DNA from: Candidatus Micrarchaeota archaeon CG1_02_51_15 | GTDB taxonomy: Archaea; Micrarchaeota; Micrarchaeia; Norongarragalinales; UBA8480 | NCBI GenBank assembly: GCA_001871495.1 | Contig: MNVG01000007.1 | Span: 4,322-68,321 of the forward strand | Reading direction: 5' to 3' | Length of the DNA: 64,000 nt | Shown here: in pieces, positions 2,821-64,000 of the stretch | How the letters are laid out: the number at the start of each line of letters is the position of its first letter | Numbering within the stretch: the first letter of the stretch is position 1 | Program-made: the position numbers and the translations under genes | Notes under the pieces: generated by a model | What the model saw: the letters and a program-made list of their open reading frames with translations, nothing else | What the model was told of the DNA's origin: nothing | Database searches by the model: none

Positions 2821-4035
2821 TCAGATGACTTGTGCAGTTCCATAGAGGCGCCAGCGGTTTTGGTTGCGGCGCATTACGGCAAGCACGTCACCGGTTTTTA
2901 CGCAAACCGGTTTTTTGAGTGTGAGTTCGAGCTTGCCTTTCTTGTAGGAGGTCACGAATCCAACAGTAGTTGCAGTTCCGATTCCGATTACCAGCGGCTC
3001 GTTAGGAATATTAAAGTCTTCGGATATTTTCTCGAGCCTGCGTTCAAGCGGCTTTGCCTGCGCAAAGAAAGTAAGCCGCGGTTGAGGCAGTACCCCCGGC
3101 TTGGCGACAAACGAGCCTACCATCGAGTCGGCGTGGGTTATTGCAGGGTCGAGCTCGGTGCCTACGCCTATAAGGCCGCCGGGAGTGGCTTCCTTGAGTT
3201 GTTCACCGCCTGCGTTGAGACTGGTTATTTTTGTGCGCAGCGGCGCATATGTTTCGCGTTCTTTTTTTACGTGAAGCACTCCGGGAAGTATTTCGATTTC
3301 GTCGCCAATTTTCAGCGTTCCTTGAAGGATGGACCCGCCGATTACGCCGCCAACGAGTTTCGATATTTTCGAGCCCGGCTTGTTTATGTCAAAGCTCCGC
3401 GCAACGTACATCAAGGGCTCTTGCGTCGCGTCGCGCTTGGGCGTCGGGAAATTGCGTTCCAATACATCGACCAACGCGTCCAAGTTGAGTTTCGAGTTTG
3501 CAGCAGTAGGGATTATTTCGGCACCTGAATAAGGAGTGTCTTTAAGGAATTCCTTGATTTGCTTGTAGTGAGTAATAGCCTGCTCGCGGGAAACCAAGTC
3601 TACCTTGTTTTGGGCAACGACTATCTTCTTGACCTTAGCCGCTTCCAAAACCATCAAGTGTTCGATAGTCTGCGGCTGGGGGCATTTTTCGTTGGCGGCA
3701 ATCACGAACAACGCGCCGTCGATTATACTGCTTGCGGCAATGGTTGTTGCAAGAAGGGTTTCGTGGCCCGGCGCGTCAACAAAAGAAATTTTGCGCACTT
3801 CCTTAACGGCAGACCCGCAGTGCTTGCATTTTTCTTCCAATGAATAGCATTTGGGGGCAGGGCACTTCGGACATTTTTTAACAGTAAAGTCGGCGTAGCC
3901 CAAGCGAATGGTTATTCCACGTTTTAGTTCTTCGCTATGGGCGCTGGTCCACCTGCCAGTCAAAGCACCTATCAGCGTGGTCTTGCCATGATCCACGTGG
4001 CCTGCAGTCATTATGTTAAGTTCGGCTTGAGCCAA
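2821..4035 (-). CDS. eif2g: translation initiation factor aIF-2 gamma subunit
   Basis: GHVDHGKTTL G1 motif. Zinc ribbon CPKCPAPKC...CKHCG. DAPGHE and NKVD motifs. Domains II and III present. 404 aa. Confidence 0.92.
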   Translation of the reverse strand: MAQAELNIMTAGHVDHGKTTLIGALTGRWTSAHSEELKRGITIRLGYADFTVKKCPKCPAPKCYSLEEKCKHCGSAVKEVRKISFVDAPGHETLLATTIAASSIIDGALFVIAANEKCPQPQTIEHLMVLEAAKVKKIVVAQNKVDLVSREQAITHYKQIKEFLKDTPYSGAEIIPTAANSKLNLDALVDVLERNFPTPKRDATQEPLMYVARSFDINKPGSKISKLVGGVIGGSILQGTLKIGDEIEILPGVLHVKKERETYAPLRTKITSLNAGGEQLKEATPGGLIGVGTELDPAITHADSMVGSFVAKPGVLPQPRLTFFAQAKPLERRLEKISEDFNIPNEPLVIGIGTATTVGFVTSYKKGKLELTLKKPVCVKTGDVLAVMRRNQNRWRLYGTAQVI

Positions 4036-40477: not shown

Positions 40478-40678
40478 ATGACCGACATCCCATTAGCACC
40501 CGTTGAACGCCTCATCCGCAAGGCAGGAGCAGAGCGCGTAAGCACAGACGCGACAGAAGCCCTAGCCGACGTCCTCGAAGAAGTCGCCTCAGACATCTCC
40601 CAAAAAGCAGTACAACTCGCCAAACACGCGGGGCGCAAGACCGTAACCGCCCAAGACATCAAGCTCGCGGCGAGATAG
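40478..40678 (+). CDS. archaeal histone (HMf-like)
   Basis: 66 aa. [32 protein letters not shown]...[19 protein letters not shown]. Confidence 0.9.
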
Positions 40679-41496: not shown

Positions 41497-42948
41497 GTGA
41501 TGCATTTGGCAACGGGAGACGCAAGACAGTTTTTGAAGACACTTAACGACAAGCAGAAGGCCTACGTGGACTTCGGCCTGAAAAACCCGCGCAACGGCGA
41601 GTACATGCTCACTGCCTTCAGGCTGGTTCCAGGCCGCGGCCTTAATTTCCTGCAAGCAGCCGCTGAAATAGCCGCCGAGTCGTCCACCGGAACCAACTTC
41701 AAGGTTCAAACAGAAACCGCATTCTCGCGAGAAATGAACGCCCTCGTTTACCAAGCCGACTCCAAGCGAAACCTTGTTTGGATTGCGTACCCTTGGCGGC
41801 TGTTCGACCGCCGCGGAAACGTCCAAAACATCCTCACTTACTTAGTCGGAAACGTTTTGGGAATGAAGGAAGTCGACGGCCTCAAGCTGTTGGACGTGTG
41901 GTTTCCACCTGCGATGCTCGAACAATACGACGGACCAAGCTACACGCTAGACGACATGCGCAAGTACCTGAAGGTCTATAACCGCCCCATTTTAGGCACA
42001 ATAGTAAAGCCAAAGATGGGCTTGACTTCCGCAGAGTACGCCGAAGTATGCTACGACTTCTGGGTCGGCGGAGGCGACTTCGTAAAAAACGACGAGCCGC
42101 AAGCCGACCAGGACTTCTGTCCCTATTACAAAATGGTCAAACACGTCAAGCAGGCGATGGACAAGGCAATCAAAAAAACTGGGAAGAAGAAAGTGCATTC
42201 GTTCAACGTGTCGGCAGCCGACTGCGACACGATGATAACGCGGTGTGAAATGATTCGCAACGCCGGCTTCGAACCAGGAAGTTACGCCTTCCTCATAGAC
42301 GGAATAATGGCAGGCTGGACCGCAGTCCAGACGCTGCGGCGGCGTTATCCCGACGTGTTCATCCACTTCCACCGTGCAGGGCACGGTGCGTTCACGCGGC
42401 CCGAAAACCCGTTTGGTTTTTCCGTGCTCGTACTCTCCAAGTTCGCGCGGCTTGCAGGCGCTTCAGGAATCCACACTGGCACAGCAGGCGTAGGCAAAAT
42501 GAAAGGCACCCCCGAAGAAGACGTGGTCGCAGCACACAACATACTGCACTTCAAAGACAAGGGCCACTTGTTCGAACAGGAATGGAACTTGATCCCCGAA
42601 AACGACAAGAACGCAATCGAACTGGTCCATTTGGACTTAGCACACCACGTCATCCTCGAAGACGATTCCTGGAGGGGAATGAAGAAGTGCTGCCCAATTG
42701 TTTCAGGCGGATTAAATCCCCTGCTGCTCAAGCCGTTCATTGACATGATGGGAAACACGGACTTCATAACAACAATGGGGGCCGGCTGCCACGCGCACCC
42801 TGAAGGAACCAAAGCAGGTGCAACTGCACTAGTTCAAGCCTGCGACGCCCAGCAAAAAAGAATACCCCTCGAAAAATACGCTAAAACTCACAAGGAACTT
42901 GCAACGGCAATAAAGTTTTTTGGAAAGAAAAAACGCAGGCCGGAATAA
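41497..42948 (+). CDS. rbcL: ribulose-1,5-bisphosphate carboxylase/oxygenase large subunit, form III (archaeal)
   Basis: AAESSTGT, GTIVKPKMGLT, GGGDFVKNDEP, HFHRAGHG and GGL motifs. No small subunit gene adjacent. 483 aa. Confidence 0.9.
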   Translation: MMHLATGDARQFLKTLNDKQKAYVDFGLKNPRNGEYMLTAFRLVPGRGLNFLQAAAEIAAESSTGTNFKVQTETAFSREMNALVYQADSKRNLVWIAYPWRLFDRRGNVQNILTYLVGNVLGMKEVDGLKLLDVWFPPAMLEQYDGPSYTLDDMRKYLKVYNRPILGTIVKPKMGLTSAEYAEVCYDFWVGGGDFVKNDEPQADQDFCPYYKMVKHVKQAMDKAIKKTGKKKVHSFNVSAADCDTMITRCEMIRNAGFEPGSYAFLIDGIMAGWTAVQTLRRRYPDVFIHFHRAGHGAFTRPENPFGFSVLVLSKFARLAGASGIHTGTAGVGKMKGTPEEDVVAAHNILHFKDKGHLFEQEWNLIPENDKNAIELVHLDLAHHVILEDDSWRGMKKCCPIVSGGLNPLLLKPFIDMMGNTDFITTMGAGCHAHPEGTKAGATALVQACDAQQKRIPLEKYAKTHKELATAIKFFGKKKRRPE

Positions 42949-59157: not shown

Positions 59158-60465
59158 ATGGAAATAAGTTTCCTCGGCGGAGCCGGGGAAGTAGGCAGAA
59201 GTTGCATACTCGTAAGCGGAAGCGAAAAAATACTGCTTGATTGCGGCGTCAAATTCAAAGAACGCGAAGAATTCCCTCAGCTAGATAACAAAACTGCGCG
59301 GTCGCTCGACCGCGCGGTGATAAGCCACGCACACATGGACCACTCGGGATTCGCGCCGGCATTATACGCAGCAGGCTATACTGGACAAGTATACCTCACC
59401 AAACCCACGCGGGACCTAACCCAATTACTTCTTGCAGATTACCTGCGGTTGCAAAAAGACTTTTCCCCCTACACTCAAGACGACATAAACAAGCTGCTTA
59501 CTCACACTCAAATTCTAGAGTACGACCAATGGAGCGACAAAGGAAAGGGGCCCATCCGCTTTCAAGAGGCAGGCCACATTCTAGGCAGCGCAATCACGGA
59601 ACTCAACCTCGACGGAAAGAAAATAATCTACACCGGCGACATAAACCTGCGCAGCTCGCGTCTCCTCGAAGGTGCTAAAGTAGGAATGGAAGCCGACGTG
59701 CTGATAATCGAAAGCACTTACGGCGCAAAGGCAAACCACCACATAGCAGGAAAAGACGCAGACCGCATACTCATAGACAACATAAACGCCGCACTCCGCA
59801 ACGACGGCAAGGTCATAATCCCCTCGTTTGCAATAGGCCGCGGGCAAGAAATCCTGTCAACACTAGAGAGCTTCATGCGCTCGGGAAGCCTTGAAAAAAC
59901 CCCTATTTACTTAGACGGCATGATAAAAAAAGCCCTCAAGATATACCGTCACAACGCAATCTACCTCAAAAAGGAAGTGCAACGTAGGATACTTACCAGC
60001 GACGACGACCCGTTCAAAAGCGAGTTTTACCTCATACCCAAAAGCAAAGACCGACGCGACGTCTTCGAACAAAAAAAAGCGATAATAGTAACTACTTCGG
60101 GAATGCTTAACGGAGGCCCGGTATTCACTTACCTTGAACACCTGGCAGGAAGCAAGAAAAACGCGATGATACTCGTAGGCTATCAAGCCGAAGGCACGCG
60201 CGGACGCAAGCTGCTCGATGGCGCAAAAGAAATCGAACTTAGACGAAAAACAGTAGAAGTAAACCTGAAAGTGTCACAAGCGCCGTTCACTGCCCACAGC
60301 GACCACCGCGAACTAGTCCACTTTGCCAAAAACGTGAGGGGACTCAAGAAAGTGTTCATAGTGCACGGCGAAAAGGAAAAACTCGGCGAACTCGCAACAG
60401 CAATACGCAGGGCAACCGGAGCCGAAGTAGTAATCCCAGAAATAGGCGAAACGCACCAAATATAA
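59158..60465 (+). CDS. beta-CASP family metallo-beta-lactamase ribonuclease, second paralog
   Basis: MEISFLGGAGEVGRSC, HAHMDHSG, beta-CASP motifs, and C-terminal HGE. 435 aa. Confidence 0.8.
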   Translation: MEISFLGGAGEVGRSCILVSGSEKILLDCGVKFKEREEFPQLDNKTARSLDRAVISHAHMDHSGFAPALYAAGYTGQVYLTKPTRDLTQLLLADYLRLQKDFSPYTQDDINKLLTHTQILEYDQWSDKGKGPIRFQEAGHILGSAITELNLDGKKIIYTGDINLRSSRLLEGAKVGMEADVLIIESTYGAKANHHIAGKDADRILIDNINAALRNDGKVIIPSFAIGRGQEILSTLESFMRSGSLEKTPIYLDGMIKKALKIYRHNAIYLKKEVQRRILTSDDDPFKSEFYLIPKSKDRRDVFEQKKAIIVTTSGMLNGGPVFTYLEHLAGSKKNAMILVGYQAEGTRGRKLLDGAKEIELRRKTVEVNLKVSQAPFTAHSDHRELVHFAKNVRGLKKVFIVHGEKEKLGELATAIRRATGAEVVIPEIGETHQI

Positions 60466-60497: not shown

Positions 60498-60812
60498 CTA
60501 AAGAGACTCGAACTTCGCCTTCGTCGCAGGAGTAAGCGCCCACTTGGTCCAACGCAAATAATCTTTTCCAGTGGGACTCTTGTAAACCTGTTGCACCAAG
60601 CCCTTTTCGCGAAGGAAAATCAGCACGCGGCCCACGAACTCGTTGTCGCGCGCAAGCTCAGCCGCCACTTCGCGACCGGAAAGAGGCTCGGGAAAACGCT
60701 CGTTCAAAAACGCAAGCGTAGCCTCTGCAACCTTGTTGAACGTACGCTGTGAAACCCTTGACAAACCCAAACTACCCTTGAAGAAAACTACACCCCGCAA
60801 AAATAAAAACAC
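60498..60812 (-). CDS. winged-helix DNA-binding protein (putative transcription regulator)
   Basis: LSGREVAAELARDNEFVGRVLIFLREKGLV wH-like segment. 104 aa. Weak. Confidence 0.4.
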   Translation of the reverse strand: MFLFLRGVVFFKGSLGLSRVSQRTFNKVAEATLAFLNERFPEPLSGREVAAELARDNEFVGRVLIFLREKGLVQQVYKSPTGKDYLRWTKWALTPATKAKFESL

Positions 60813-60875: not shown

Positions 60876-62294
60876 GTGACCATTAAAATGGATTCCGTTT
60901 CTTTTTTCGAACGCTGCACTAAAGTCGGCGAAAGCGCGCTAAGCTTTGAAAATCCGTTAGTAGTACATCACATTGACTGCGACGGAATAGCATCCGGAGC
61001 AACAGCAGCATGGGCGCTTGAAAGAAGCGGAAAAAACGTTTTAACCAAGGCAGAAAAACAACTAAATCCCGATATTATAGCAGGCGTAAGGGAGTTTGCG
61101 CAAAAAAATAATTGCAGTGGAATCGTGTTCACCGACTTTGGTTCGGGAATGATTAACGAAGTTGGAAAGCTCTCTGACGAATTCAAGGTCGCAGTAATAG
61201 ACCATCATAAACTCGAAACCGCGCCGTCTGAAACAATAGCGCATGCAAACTGCGAAGAATTTGGTTTTTCCGGAACAGACGACGCCTGCGGCGCGTCCAC
61301 GGCCTATTTCTGCTTCCGCCACCGCTTTCCCGACCTCGCACAACTTGGAATAGTTGGGGCAGTCGGAGACATGCAGGACCGACGCGGATTCGGTAAAATA
61401 AACGCGCTCATGCTACAAGATGCGATCAGTGGAGGGTTCTGCAAAGTACTTAAAGACTTACGGATGTTCGGCCGCAACTCGCGTTCACTTACAAGCTTCC
61501 TCGCCTATTCTTCGGAACCCTTCGTGCCCGGCTTAAGCGGAGACGAAAAAGCATGCGCACTTTTCCTGCGTGAAAACGGACTTCCCACGCGCGACGCAAA
61601 AGGCAACTGGATTCACTATTGGGACCTTCCGATTGAAGCCAAGCGCGCGCTTGTGGGTGCTTTCCTAAACAAGTGCATGGAGCAAAAAATAGATTCCGAA
61701 CTCCTATGCTCGATAATAGGCGACGTCTACGTATTCCCAAACGAAGACCCGCATTCTGAATTATACGATGCTTTGGAGTACAGCACGCTGCTCAACGCTT
61801 GCGGCAGGCACGGCCACGCTCAAGAAGGAATCCGCTTGTGCACAAAGAAAGAAGGCGCGTTGGAAGAAGGAAGAAAGCTACTCAACGAACACAGAAGGGC
61901 AATACGCAACGGACTTTGGTACGCGCGCAAGAACTTCGTAGACCTAGGCGCGTTTTATTTTCTCGACTGCCGCGGAACCGTAAGCGACACGGTAGTAGGA
62001 ATTGTTGCCGGAAGTTTTCTTGGATCTGGCCTGGTACGCCGAAACAAGCCGGCAATCGCGTTCGCACTCGACGAAAAAAACAACGTCAAGGCATCCTCGC
62101 GCGGAACCGCGGAGATGGTTACAGACGGGCTTGACTTAGATGCGGCACTCCGAGAGTCACTATTAGAAATAGGAGCAGGAGGAGGGCACAGCATAGCCGC
62201 AGGCGCCACAATACAAAAAGGCTATGAAGACGAATTCCTTAAACGCCTGAAAAAAGCCCTAGAAAAACAGGGCTTCGGAATTCACAACGCATAA
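60876..62294 (+). CDS. DHH-family RecJ-like exonuclease (GAN/Cdc45-like)
   Basis: HHIDCDGIASGA (DHH motif I), VIDHHK (DHH motif), DHHA1-like C-terminal region with GGGH. 472 aa. Confidence 0.75.
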   Translation: MTIKMDSVSFFERCTKVGESALSFENPLVVHHIDCDGIASGATAAWALERSGKNVLTKAEKQLNPDIIAGVREFAQKNNCSGIVFTDFGSGMINEVGKLSDEFKVAVIDHHKLETAPSETIAHANCEEFGFSGTDDACGASTAYFCFRHRFPDLAQLGIVGAVGDMQDRRGFGKINALMLQDAISGGFCKVLKDLRMFGRNSRSLTSFLAYSSEPFVPGLSGDEKACALFLRENGLPTRDAKGNWIHYWDLPIEAKRALVGAFLNKCMEQKIDSELLCSIIGDVYVFPNEDPHSELYDALEYSTLLNACGRHGHAQEGIRLCTKKEGALEEGRKLLNEHRRAIRNGLWYARKNFVDLGAFYFLDCRGTVSDTVVGIVAGSFLGSGLVRRNKPAIAFALDEKNNVKASSRGTAEMVTDGLDLDAALRESLLEIGAGGGHSIAAGATIQKGYEDEFLKRLKKALEKQGFGIHNA

Positions 62295-62595: not shown

Positions 62596-63777
62596 TCAAT
62601 GCAACGTAAAAATGTTCCTGACTTTTGCATTCACGAAATAAATGTTTTTCTTCCGCCCTCCCACCAACTTGGGTTTCACTTCCACCAAAGGAAAAGGCAC
62701 TTCGGGCTTACGTTTCAACTCCGCGTCGTCTTCTCCCCTCAACTGATACAGCGCATTGAAACAAGTGTTCTGTGCGAGTTTCAACTCCGCTATTATCTCA
62801 TTAAGCGTAACCCCTTCAGGCCTAGTAAGCAAAAGCTTCATCACGCCCTGCTGCGAAGGAGAAAGCATTACCCACCACTCCGCATGAGCAGTGGTTATCT
62901 TATCTTCTCTCGCACGCTGCACCACATCCATCACAAACGCGTCGCGCGCATAAGGGTGTTCAACATGTTCTTCAACCTCTTCTTCCTCAGCAGCAACAGC
63001 CTCGCCGGCTGCAATCTTGGCCAGTTGCGCATTCAACTCGTCAAAAACGTAACGCGGAGTCAAAAGATTCTGTTCAGTAAACACTTCCCCTAGGAAGTCG
63101 TCGTCAAACGGCGCAACTCCCTTTCCGCCAACTGCCGAAATGCGGCGTTCAATTATACGCTTCATCTCGTCACGGGAGAAATTCTTCCTAGTAAACACGT
63201 TTTTGGAACCTATCAAGTGCATTAACGAATCCGGAAACCCCTCTTGGCCCAGTGAAGACAACACCAACCTCAAGTTGGATGCCTCATCCAACAAATACTT
63301 GAACTCCATATACATTTCCTTAGATGCTACAAGATGCGCTTCGTCAACAAACAATACTACCTTGCGGTCGACTGCCTTTACCCGACGCGCCAGTTCCTCG
63401 CGCGAAATAATTTTCTTCCCCCTAAAAACGGACAAAAGTCCGTCGACCAAACCGTTTTGCTTAACCAAACCCATTTCGCGAGCCAAAGCATCCACTGACG
63501 CAGGCGGTTCTTTGAGCAATATCGGAAGAAACGAGTCTTCAGGCAAGGAATAAAAGACATGATACAACGCAGATGTCTTGCCAACTCCTTTAGGTCCAGT
63601 CAGCAAACACGCCTTGGCATCAAAGGCAAGTTTTTGCAAAATAGCAGTTGACTCAAACGGGCAGTAGTGCTTAACAAAAGACTCCCTATCGAATACCCTA
63701 AGGTCCTTGACAAACGGGTTCTCATTCCACTTCAAGTCCTGCAACAATCTTTCCTTTGCTTCAAAAATATCAGTCAC
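62596..63777 (-). CDS. AAA+ ATPase with C-terminal winged helix (Arch_ATPase or Orc1/Cdc6-like)
   Basis: VFDRESF motif, then Walker A TGPKGVGKTS. Walker B VLFVDEAH. C-terminal wH (VTLNEIIAELKLAQNT...). FDRE favours the archaeal ATPase family PF01637, so the Orc1/Cdc6 call is unresolved. Confidence 0.55.
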   Translation of the reverse strand: MTDIFEAKERLLQDLKWNENPFVKDLRVFDRESFVKHYCPFESTAILQKLAFDAKACLLTGPKGVGKTSALYHVFYSLPEDSFLPILLKEPPASVDALAREMGLVKQNGLVDGLLSVFRGKKIISREELARRVKAVDRKVVLFVDEAHLVASKEMYMEFKYLLDEASNLRLVLSSLGQEGFPDSLMHLIGSKNVFTRKNFSRDEMKRIIERRISAVGGKGVAPFDDDFLGEVFTEQNLLTPRYVFDELNAQLAKIAAGEAVAAEEEEVEEHVEHPYARDAFVMDVVQRAREDKITTAHAEWWVMLSPSQQGVMKLLLTRPEGVTLNEIIAELKLAQNTCFNALYQLRGEDDAELKRKPEVPFPLVEVKPKLVGGRKKNIYFVNAKVRNIFTLH

Positions 63778-63807
63778 TTTTCAATCCACCTGATTCAGAC
63801 AACATTA

Positions 63808-63995
63808 TCTAAAAGACATATAAAAACACCATAGTTCCACAAAAGACATGTAAAAGGCTCGTAAGAGACTCGCCCCTTGGACTTCCCTGTTTTTACATCT
63901 AAAAGCCCCACTCTATAAAAGAGTTAAAAGAGTAGTAAAAGACTTGTAAAAGAGAAGTAAAAGACATGTGAGGGGGTAGTAAGAGACATATACAC
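63808..63995. repeat. array of at least 8 copies of an approximately 11-nt A-tract motif GTAAAAGA(C/G)NN (one inverted)
   Basis: Copies include ctaaaagacatat, aaaagacatgt, gtaagagact, inverted ttttacatct, ttaaaagagta, gtaaaagacttg, taaaagagaa, gtaaaagacatgt, gtaagagacatat. They lie immediately upstream (on the minus strand) of the AAA+ ATPase gene and continue to the window edge. Confidence 0.5.
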
Positions 63996-64000
63996 AATGT

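Follow-up and report, generated by a model that had tools for sequence, protein, structure and literature searches.

A helically phased repeat array beside an Orc1/Cdc6-shaped ATPase: a candidate replication origin in Micrarchaeota

The replication origins (oriC) of archaea such as Sulfolobus (oriC1), Pyrococcus abyssi and Methanothermobacter are associated with an orc1/cdc6 gene, whose product consists of an AAA+ domain, a lid and a winged helix, and they carry dyad Origin Recognition Boxes (ORBs) flanking an AT-rich unwinding element. For the Micrarchaeota no replication origin or initiator has so far been defined, and a full-text search of the literature found no discussion of either. Here we describe an array of short repeats upstream of the gene for an AAA+ ATPase in a 64,000-nt stretch, referred to as the window, of the genome of Candidatus Micrarchaeota archaeon CG1_02_51_15 (contig MNVG01000007.1). 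The safest statement is that the array would be a cognate, helically phased set of binding sites for a phylum-specific, Orc1/Cdc6-shaped ATPase, which is its putative binder. It is also the best candidate for the Micrarchaeota replication origin.

The locus resembles the archaeal origins in that the ATPase has the AAA+, lid and winged-helix make-up, with Orc1/Cdc6 on origin DNA as its closest structures, and in that its gene abuts a short-repeat array within an unusually long gap of low guanine and cytosine (GC) content. A switch in strand composition with the polarity of an origin is found at the array and a replication gene, that of GAN, lies next door. On the other hand, the ATPase falls outside the Orc1/Cdc6 sequence models, the GTCTTTTAC repeats are mostly direct and in strict 11-bp register rather than dyad boxes around an unwinding element, a histone gene is attached, and in one clade the skew switch is located elsewhere.

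In layout the array is also close to the low-affinity DnaA boxes of Escherichia coli oriC, which are 9-mers placed 2 bp apart (PMC6070618). Both have sites of about 9 bp in an 11-bp register, mostly in one orientation, beside the gene for a protein of the AAA+ initiator clade with a separate DNA-binding domain, a layout that would suit cooperative, filament-like filling. E. coli is, however, of another domain of life, the DNA-binding domain is a winged helix here and domain IV in DnaA, and neither flanking high-affinity anchor boxes nor an element of the DnaA-trio type was identified at our locus. In the parC/ParR system of plasmid R1 (PMC2241845), too, 11-bp direct iterons are grouped in blocks that precede the promoter of the neighbouring operon and overlap it, and in both cases the site is expected to be curved and autoregulating. 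Our array differs in being chromosomal and phylum-wide, in having no partition motor gene, and in its putative binder, an AAA+/winged-helix protein in place of a ribbon-helix-helix adaptor. The ATPase itself matches AAA_22, the family of the ExeA-TniB-TnsC-MuB group, and it has an N-terminal GWxxNPF motif, a PR sensor motif and a C-terminal winged helix in common with its distant relatives, of which 37 of 61 match ATPase_2 (PF01637). Proteins of these groups are linked to transposition or secretion, or are of unknown function, and none is known to be accompanied by phased iterons or a histone gene or to lie at a skew switch.

The repeat array and the adjacent ATPase

Coordinates refer to the window unless otherwise stated, and bases past 64,000 were read from L001 and L004, two assemblies of the same population. 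The repeat, GTAAAAGAC, which reads GTCTTTTAC in the direction of the ATPase gene, is arranged in an 11-nt register between 63808 and 63989. Using a 12-mer weight matrix derived from 44 related upstream regions we found nine strong copies, with starts at 63808, 63838, 63849, 63860, 63914, 63934, 63945, 63956 and 63978, all on the minus strand and hence oriented towards the ATPase gene, together with weaker copies starting at 63898 and 63923. A single inverted degenerate copy (ctgtttttacat, 63887-63898) lies head-to-head with the sequence at 63898-63909. Tandem Repeats Finder gives a period of 11 across 63841-63872 and at 63916-63964 (4.6 copies) and a period of 22 at 63925-63989 (3 copies). The phased array of the preliminary description is therefore real, including its one inverted copy, and it is conserved with the ATPase. 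That it runs off the edge of the window is at most marginally the case: it ends at about 63,989 and just two degenerate copies follow, at 64,030-64,053 in L001 and L004, after which there is a TATA-like box and then a divergent 73-aa open reading frame (ORF) from 64,102.

Within 73.8 kb of this genome the array is the sole cluster with at least three matrix hits per 250 nt. The exact heptamer TAAAAGA occurs 15 times in the window, with 14.7 expected by chance, and 6 of the 15 fall together in a 155-nt segment here. We also considered whether the motif marks a regulon; high-scoring hits outside the array were 4 against 6.9 expected over the same 73.8 kb and no second cluster was present in any locus. 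Rfam gave no match in the intergenic region. Block B of the repeats (Table 1) forms the least stable duplex of this region, the 60-nt segment 63911-63970 ranking 25th least stable of 9,459 over 94.6 kb. Assemblies L002, L003 and L004 break 94-230 nt upstream of the ATPase, within the array or at its edge, and of six single-nucleotide polymorphisms between the window and L001 across 11.4 kb two are inside the array (63947 and 63975). The break points and polymorphisms suggest strain-level variability of the repeats.

A scan with one genome per species yielded 45 Micrarchaeota loci, of 37-60% GC, and the module of array, ATPase and histone gene was found again in these 45 genomes. The 8-mer GTCTTTTA is seen 69 times, where 0.4 are expected, in the 350-nt segments that precede the homologues, spread over 30 loci, and k-mers are enriched about 100-fold in the upstream regions. 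The repeat unit is RWGTCTTTTAC, 11 nt in gene direction, and the C, TTA and C positions of the 9-mer within it are near-invariant across this whole range of GC. Matrix hits number 17.4 per kb upstream and 0.87 per kb elsewhere, mainly in the orientation of the gene; at least four are present in 41 of 44 loci (median seven) and clusters of at least four lie exclusively upstream of the ATPase gene (46 loci, about 1 Mb scanned). The spacing between successive copies peaks at 11 nt (84 cases) and then at 20-22, 30-34, 41-44, 53-54 and 62-64 nt. The longer gaps are thus approximately multiples of 10.5 bp, and with the peaks at helical multiples the copies stay on one face of the helix. For about half of the relatives the array gap is the longest intergenic gap of the 20-kb locus, and in most its GC is below that of the locus as a whole.

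A TATA box, (C/T)TTTTA(T/A)A(T/A), is present upstream in 42 of 44 loci, typically 30-100 nt before the start codon, and a comparison anchored on it gives a common plan of upstream array, spacer of about 30-40 nt and TATA box. An extra copy lies 11 nt after the TATA box, before the expected transcription start, in 15 of the 42 loci, the window has such a copy, and the TATA box and the repeat have CTTTTA in common. Because of the copy beside the TATA box, autoregulation is predicted and would seem very likely. A second 8-mer, TTCCA(C/G)T(A/G), related to GTTCCAC, is enriched 6.6-fold upstream (17 of 43 loci). In one clade (L026, L033, L040 and L048) a leader of 130-200 nt with hairpins and T-runs separates the TATA box from the ATPase start codon, and this could be an attenuator or hold a small upstream ORF.

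In 43 of the 45 loci there is a histone-fold gene at +1.1 to +2.5 kb, downstream of the ATPase and on its strand, and a GAN gene is nearby in 31, mostly convergent. Upstream, genes for ThiF, JAB and a 263-aa ORF are each found in 29 of the 45 and that for D-aminoacyl-tRNA deacylase (Dtd) in 19; whichever gene lies upstream, the position of the array relative to the ATPase promoter is constant. Even on a rival reading of its role, the module of array, ATPase and histone gene is a DNA-protein system not described before, which is highly conserved and extends across the phylum.

BLASTP finds 123 homologues of the ATPase at E ≤ 0.001, with identities of 44-99%, mostly 45-62%. The family is very strongly conserved and all sources with an organism name are Micrarchaeota, Micrarchaeia or Norongarragalinales. 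The only Pfam model passed is AAA_22 (PF13401; 42.3 bits against a cut-off of 27, E 1e-10), which is matched by all 44 family members at E ≤ 1; there are weak helix-turn-helix matches at residues 304-346 and no NCBIfam model match of any kind. Among the 44 members PF24389 ('ORC-CDC6-like') is matched weakly, below threshold, in 22 and PF01637 in 15, and Cdc6_C is absent from the 25 families most often matched. The preliminary description had weighed Orc1/Cdc6 against Arch_ATPase and leaned to the latter because of an FDRE motif. This motif (residues 29-32) is not conserved across the family and the window ATPase has no match to PF01637 (Arch_ATPase, ATPase_2), so the argument fails; a comparison of models matches the protein to neither family.

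A profile search of 1.84 billion representatives returned the family itself and, separated from it by a gap, proteins of 350-400 aa (E 1e-23 to 1e-5) that are laid out alike, with an N-terminal GWxxNPF, Walker A, DEAxx and a PR sensor motif followed by a winged helix at the C terminus. Of these distant relatives 61 were scanned; all match AAA_22, 37 match PF01637 and 16 PF24389. A distant relative, P0126 (E 9e-23; L068:7910-8000), has a promoter region of 91 nt with ATCATACAA twice and an inverted TTGTATGAT around the TATA box; no histone gene follows it. Of an origin belonging to a mobile element or viral replicon there was no sign, as 2.9 million viral contigs contained no relatives of the ATPase family.

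In the AlphaFold 2 (AF2) model of the ATPase (pLDDT 89.4) the AAA+ core has three helices placed between b2 and b3, and it is followed by a lid, a disordered acidic linker and a winged helix. The last, which the preliminary description had also recognised in this 393-aa AAA+ protein, is confidently modelled and its hairpin bears an invariant VGGRKKN-Y. With the full-length model Foldseek places archaeal Orc1-DNA complexes at the top (2v1u_A, E 1.3e-9; 2qby_A, E 2e-8). Helices inserted between b2 and b3, a lid, and at the C terminus a winged helix bearing a DNA-binding wing are features of the Orc1/Cdc6 architecture, and the model has them all. As modelled, the ATPase is Orc1/Cdc6-like in architecture and, by sequence, outside the Orc1/Cdc6 family.

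Strand composition around the array

For the analysis of skew the window was joined to 30.6 kb beyond its end (from a 67.5-kb ENA contig), giving 94,642 nt. The cumulative GC skew declines over 64 kb and turns upwards within the array, its global minimum being at 63,913; for the keto (G+T) skew the minimum is at 64,344. An origin leaves an excess of G and T on the strand leading away from it, and the polarity at the array is of this type. The GC-skew minimum that had been proposed as a check on the preliminary description thus lies where an origin at the array would place it, in this genome and similarly in a second one (L013).

As archaeal skews can reflect gene orientation, per-gene skew was regressed on the side of the array and on gene strand. 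With this strand correction, the array gap is the best single breakpoint, among about 170 tested, for GC, AT, GC3 and AT3 skew. The effect is greater at third codon positions (GC3 +/-0.09, AT3 -/+0.14), and permutation of the gene order gives p = 0.007 for GC3 and p < 0.004 for AT3. To the left of the array 66% of coding bases are on the strand co-directional with a fork leaving it. On the right flank the skew reverts for a few kb after about 6 kb, near an integrase gene, and is then positive again. This integrase, of the rve family (L064:6971-7675), is encoded about 14 kb to the right of the array in the short stretch of reverted skew, where GC drops to 0.45, and it may be an insertion disturbing the right flank.

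The L013 genome, of which 47 kb is assembled, has an ATPase 57% identical to that of the window and rearranged flanks, with a gene block on swapped sides. Measured from the ATPase start, the minima of its GC skew (-85) and of its keto skew (-180) both fall within its array, and the best breakpoint for GC and GC3 among 41 candidates is again the array gap (permutation p < 0.004). The block that has changed sides, PRC-enolase-apgM-TFE-Trm56, is downstream of the ATPase there (L066 / L069, JBBIMI010000001.1) and upstream here (L064), a swap across the array which resembles origin-centred inversions. Given the skew results, origin function is the best-supported further reading of the array in this genome and in the L013 lineage.

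Raw skew in flanks of +/-10 kb is noisy and confounded by gene strand, and the strand-corrected regression at third positions was used instead for 32 relatives. The side term for GC3 is positive in 24 of the 32 (p 0.002) and that for AT3 negative in 27 (p 4e-5), p-values which overstate independence because the loci are phylogenetically related. Both terms are as predicted in 21 relatives and both opposite in 2. In 5 of 34 loci, where fewer than one would be expected, the raw cumulative GC-skew minimum of the 20-kb locus is in the 450 nt that precede the start of the ATPase gene; no maxima fall there.

Features of the locus and neighbouring genes

The features are collected in Table 1. The short element GTTCCAC beside the TATA box resembles the ORB core.

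Table 1. Features of the array region and the adjacent genes, in window coordinates.
Feature	Position	Strand	Remarks
GAN / RecJ-Cdc45-like DHH-DHHA1 nuclease gene	60876..62294	+	convergent with the histone gene; Pfam DHH, DHH_CID, DHHA1
Histone-fold gene, 76 aa	62282..62512	-	directly downstream of the ATPase; Pfam CBFD_NFYB_HMF, E 6e-5
AAA+ / winged-helix ATPase gene, 393 aa	62596..63777	-	Micrarchaeota-specific family; Walker A G61-S69; Walker B D145-E146; three helices 95-135 between b2 and b3; lid 202-256; acidic disordered linker 257-280; winged helix 300-382, hairpin wing 365-382
Intergenic region with the array	63778..64101 (window part 63778..64000)	.	324 nt; 37% GC against 48-49% in the surroundings
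Shine-Dalgarno-like aggtgg of the ATPase gene	63786-63791	-	sequence reading
Promoter-proximal iteron atgtcttttaga	63808..63819	-	matrix score 12.1; starts 11 nt downstream of the TATA box, before the expected transcription start
ATPase TATA box, tttttatat	63818..63826	-	sequence reading
GTTCCAC, second short element beside the TATA box	63834..63840	+	sequence reading
Iteron block A	63838..63871	-	copies from 63838, 63849, 63860 in exact 11-nt steps; scores 10.2, 15.1, 14.8
G+C-rich spacer with head-to-head degenerate pair, gggcttttagatgtaaaaacaggg	63872..63913	.	63887-63898 (+), 63898-63909 (-); weak matrix hit 63898
Iteron block B	63914..63989	-	copies from 63914, (63923), 63934, 63945, 63956, 63978; scores 14.1-15.5; periods 11 and 22

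The histone and GAN genes are adjacent to the ATPase as the preliminary description had them, Pfam confirming both. A second, canonical histone of 66 aa (about 40478-40678, plus strand), to which the 76-aa ATPase-linked histone is 47% identical, is encoded beside a form-III-type RuBisCO large subunit (41497-42948, plus strand). Between the GAN gene and a beta-CASP / RMMBL nuclease gene (59158-60465, plus strand) there is an ORF of 104 aa (60498-60812, minus strand) without a Pfam match, which is found near the ATPase in 23 loci. The beta-CASP gene is whole in the window and in three pieces in GCA_013330065.1 (L002:3519-5005), the split being either a frameshift or an assembly error.

Past the end of the window lies an operon for a ubiquitin-like modifier (L001:4415-8535, about 65.2-69.4 kb in joined coordinates), consisting of UQ_con (E2), ORFs of 89 and 56 aa, a JAB deubiquitinase-type protein, the 263-aa ORF and ThiF (E1). 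A run of replication and repair genes, encoding an RPA-like OB-fold protein, RadA, a DnaG-type Toprim primase and the Hjc resolvase, is situated about 22-28 kb right of the array (L065:1813-8000).

Possible roles of the array

In its many copies, helical phase and linked gene the array has the form of an iteron or initiator-box array, with the ATPase as its putative binder. We infer that the ATPase binds to the repeats and oligomerises there, that it represses the promoter and that replication starts at the array. In such a mechanism about a dozen phased 9-bp iterons would be the cognate sites of the adjacent Orc1/Cdc6-shaped ATPase, with one iteron read by each winged helix. As the sites are on one helix face, ATP-dependent AAA+ contacts could join neighbouring protomers into a filament, in the manner of DnaA on 9-mer boxes 2 bp apart or of archaeal Orc1 on ORBs and mini-ORBs. 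The complex would throttle the promoter of the ATPase, and with it perhaps of the histone, because one copy is placed after the TATA box and ahead of the transcription start, and the TATA box is itself similar to the repeat. It would also mark the chromosomal origin in the lineage, A+T-rich block B being likeliest to open. Taken as a whole, the reading that the repeats are cognate iterons on which the ATPase polymerises, autoregulating the ATPase-histone pair and marking oriC in this lineage, seems to us evenly poised between true and false.

A number of observations weigh against it. The ATPase and its 44 family members have no significant match to an Orc1/Cdc6 model (TIGR02928, Cdc6_C PF09079) in Pfam or NCBIfam, and neither the single sequence nor the family profile has a sequence match in the PDB. 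An hhalign comparison with an Orc1/Cdc6 consensus, itself validated on 2v1u_A (E 3e-142), gives a probability of 81% and an E of 1e-5 for the AAA core alone; the proteins closest to it in sequence belong to AAA_22 / ATPase_2 and have no known function, and the distant relative P0126 has simple operator-like repeats in its 91-nt promoter. Of the likeness to an oriC with ORBs that was first suggested, the Orc1/Cdc6-like fold and the skew switch in the array stand, but the repeats are not of the ORB consensus, being a different 9-mer in direct 11-nt register, and only a single GTTCCAC / TTCCASTR element is present. Extension past 64,000 did reveal the full array, though duplex stability over the 94.6 kb shows no long AT-rich unwinding element in the array region. 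With regard to the skew, a minimum rarely fixes a position to within a few hundred bases or even a few kb, about a third of the relatives have no switch within +/-10 kb, and the gene calls used in the regression, being longest-ORF heuristics, are crude, which limits the strand correction. Archaeal skews have, moreover, been attributed to gene orientation (preprint 10.1101/2023.11.15.567178).

The L033 genome is also to be counted here. Over its 42 kb the skew has a clear V shape and the array is intact, but the minimum lies 12-15 kb upstream of it, where 3 kb of low-GC sequence poor in genes contain repeats of their own and a very AT-rich core. This stretch (L067:2100-5100, JACQQD010000001.1), which has 47% GC in a genome of 57%, holds repeated AAATAGGCAG, AAGTAAACAA and GTTCCAC motifs, the AT-rich core at 3190-3370 and one 87-aa ORF; it has no match in Rfam and is a candidate for an origin or an acquired element. 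As a general origin repeat AAATAGGCAG was rejected, since it does not cluster in other loci. The genes for Dtd, ThiF, the 263-aa ORF and JAB, which are situated between this stretch and the array, have positive skew in the L033 genome and negative skew here (L001) in unchanged orientation; the skew is therefore set by position and not by the genes themselves. That the array is kept in L033 with the main switch elsewhere suggests that its conserved role may be narrower, or that the L033 clade may have gained another origin.

A further point concerns the canonical initiator. At least one Orc1/Cdc6 homologue has been reported in all archaea except the Methanococcales and Methanopyrales, and the ARMAN genomes are counted among the holders, with a caution over incomplete assembly (Raymann et al, 2014, PMC3914693). 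In the two exceptional orders no Orc1/Cdc6 is recognisable, and a replacement of the initiator, by a non-orthologous protein or by one diverged beyond recognition, has been proposed (PMC3914693), which provides a precedent for the Micrarchaeota, although one that differs from them in so far as ARMAN genomes are credited with a homologue. We searched the window, its extensions and 60-odd loci with tblastn using the validated Orc1/Cdc6 consensus and three PDB-derived sequences. Canonical Orc1/Cdc6 was found neither near the three skew minima, with 95, 47 and 42 kb covered, nor in about 1.1 Mb of Micrarchaeota DNA; the one weak match is SRP54. Neither does the Pfam annotation of the window genes contain it.

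The array might instead be an operator only, a regulatory iteron set such as the preliminary description gave as its alternative. The ATPase or some other factor would bind the phased sites cooperatively and control the ATPase-histone pair, with the origin nearby but set by other elements and a canonical Orc1/Cdc6 encoded elsewhere, so that the ATPase gene would simply be close to the origin. The copy that 15 of 42 loci have after the TATA box and ahead of the transcription start, the repeat-like TATA box and the constancy of the array-promoter relation whatever the upstream gene would all fit, as would the intact array of L033 with its switch 12-15 kb away and the operator-like repeats of the distant relative around its TATA box in a 91-nt gap; the second element in the same regions, which is similar to the ORB core, could be where Orc1 actually binds. 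Seven to 12 sites are, however, far beyond the needs of simple autoregulation, the skew switch is in this gap in two independent genomes, and no canonical Orc1/Cdc6 turned up near the three skew minima in the 95, 47 and 42 kb searched. We regard an operator alone as unlikely, if still the main rival. A centromere-like function, in which origin-proximal 11-bp iterons nucleate a superhelical complex for partition and autorepression, would have the form of R1 parC, where two sets of strongly curved 11-bp direct repeats are also the operators of the adjacent operon (PMC2241845). The single locus per genome sample, proximal to the origin and not always at the skew switch, is in keeping with this, and the form of the array matches. 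However, the module has no motor of the ParA, ParM or TubZ type, no partition-type NTPase was found within +/-10 kb, the AAA+ class is not known to drive partition and the ATPase family has no plasmid or viral relatives, all of which make such a function improbable.

It is more improbable again that the array is curved DNA whose phased A-tracts wrap the co-encoded histone, and not the ATPase, so as to set the chromatin state of the promoter. A4 tracts do recur every 10.5-11 bp and a histone gene does follow the ATPase in 43 of 45 loci, but what is conserved is a specific 9-mer with its near-invariant C, TTA and C, and this speaks for a reading of the bases themselves, not just of the curvature. 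That the array is low-complexity sequence arisen by chance, or an artefact of assembly, might have been suspected from the chance frequency of TAAAAGA in the window and from the three assemblies that break inside the array. This idea is refuted by the identical array sequence in four independent assemblies and by its conservation in 45 genomes with the 100-fold enrichment of k-mers, and its probability is negligible.

A proposal bolder and more doubtful than the cognate-iteron reading, to which we hold only tentatively, is that replication in the Micrarchaeota may be started by a new initiator family, an ExeA/TniB-like AAA_22 ATPase of Orc1/Cdc6-like architecture that polymerises on DnaA-style 9-bp iterons in 11-bp register, always with a dedicated histone, and that replaces canonical Orc1/Cdc6 or acts beside it. 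If the cognate-iteron reading is true, there would be an archaeal initiator that escapes every Orc1/Cdc6 model and an arrangement of sites like that of DnaA which had arisen independently in archaea, with control of an origin or promoter tied to a dedicated histone. The array would then provide a sequence-searchable origin landmark for a phylum of ultra-small archaea, of use for the rotation and checking of genomes and for estimating growth rates from metagenome coverage.

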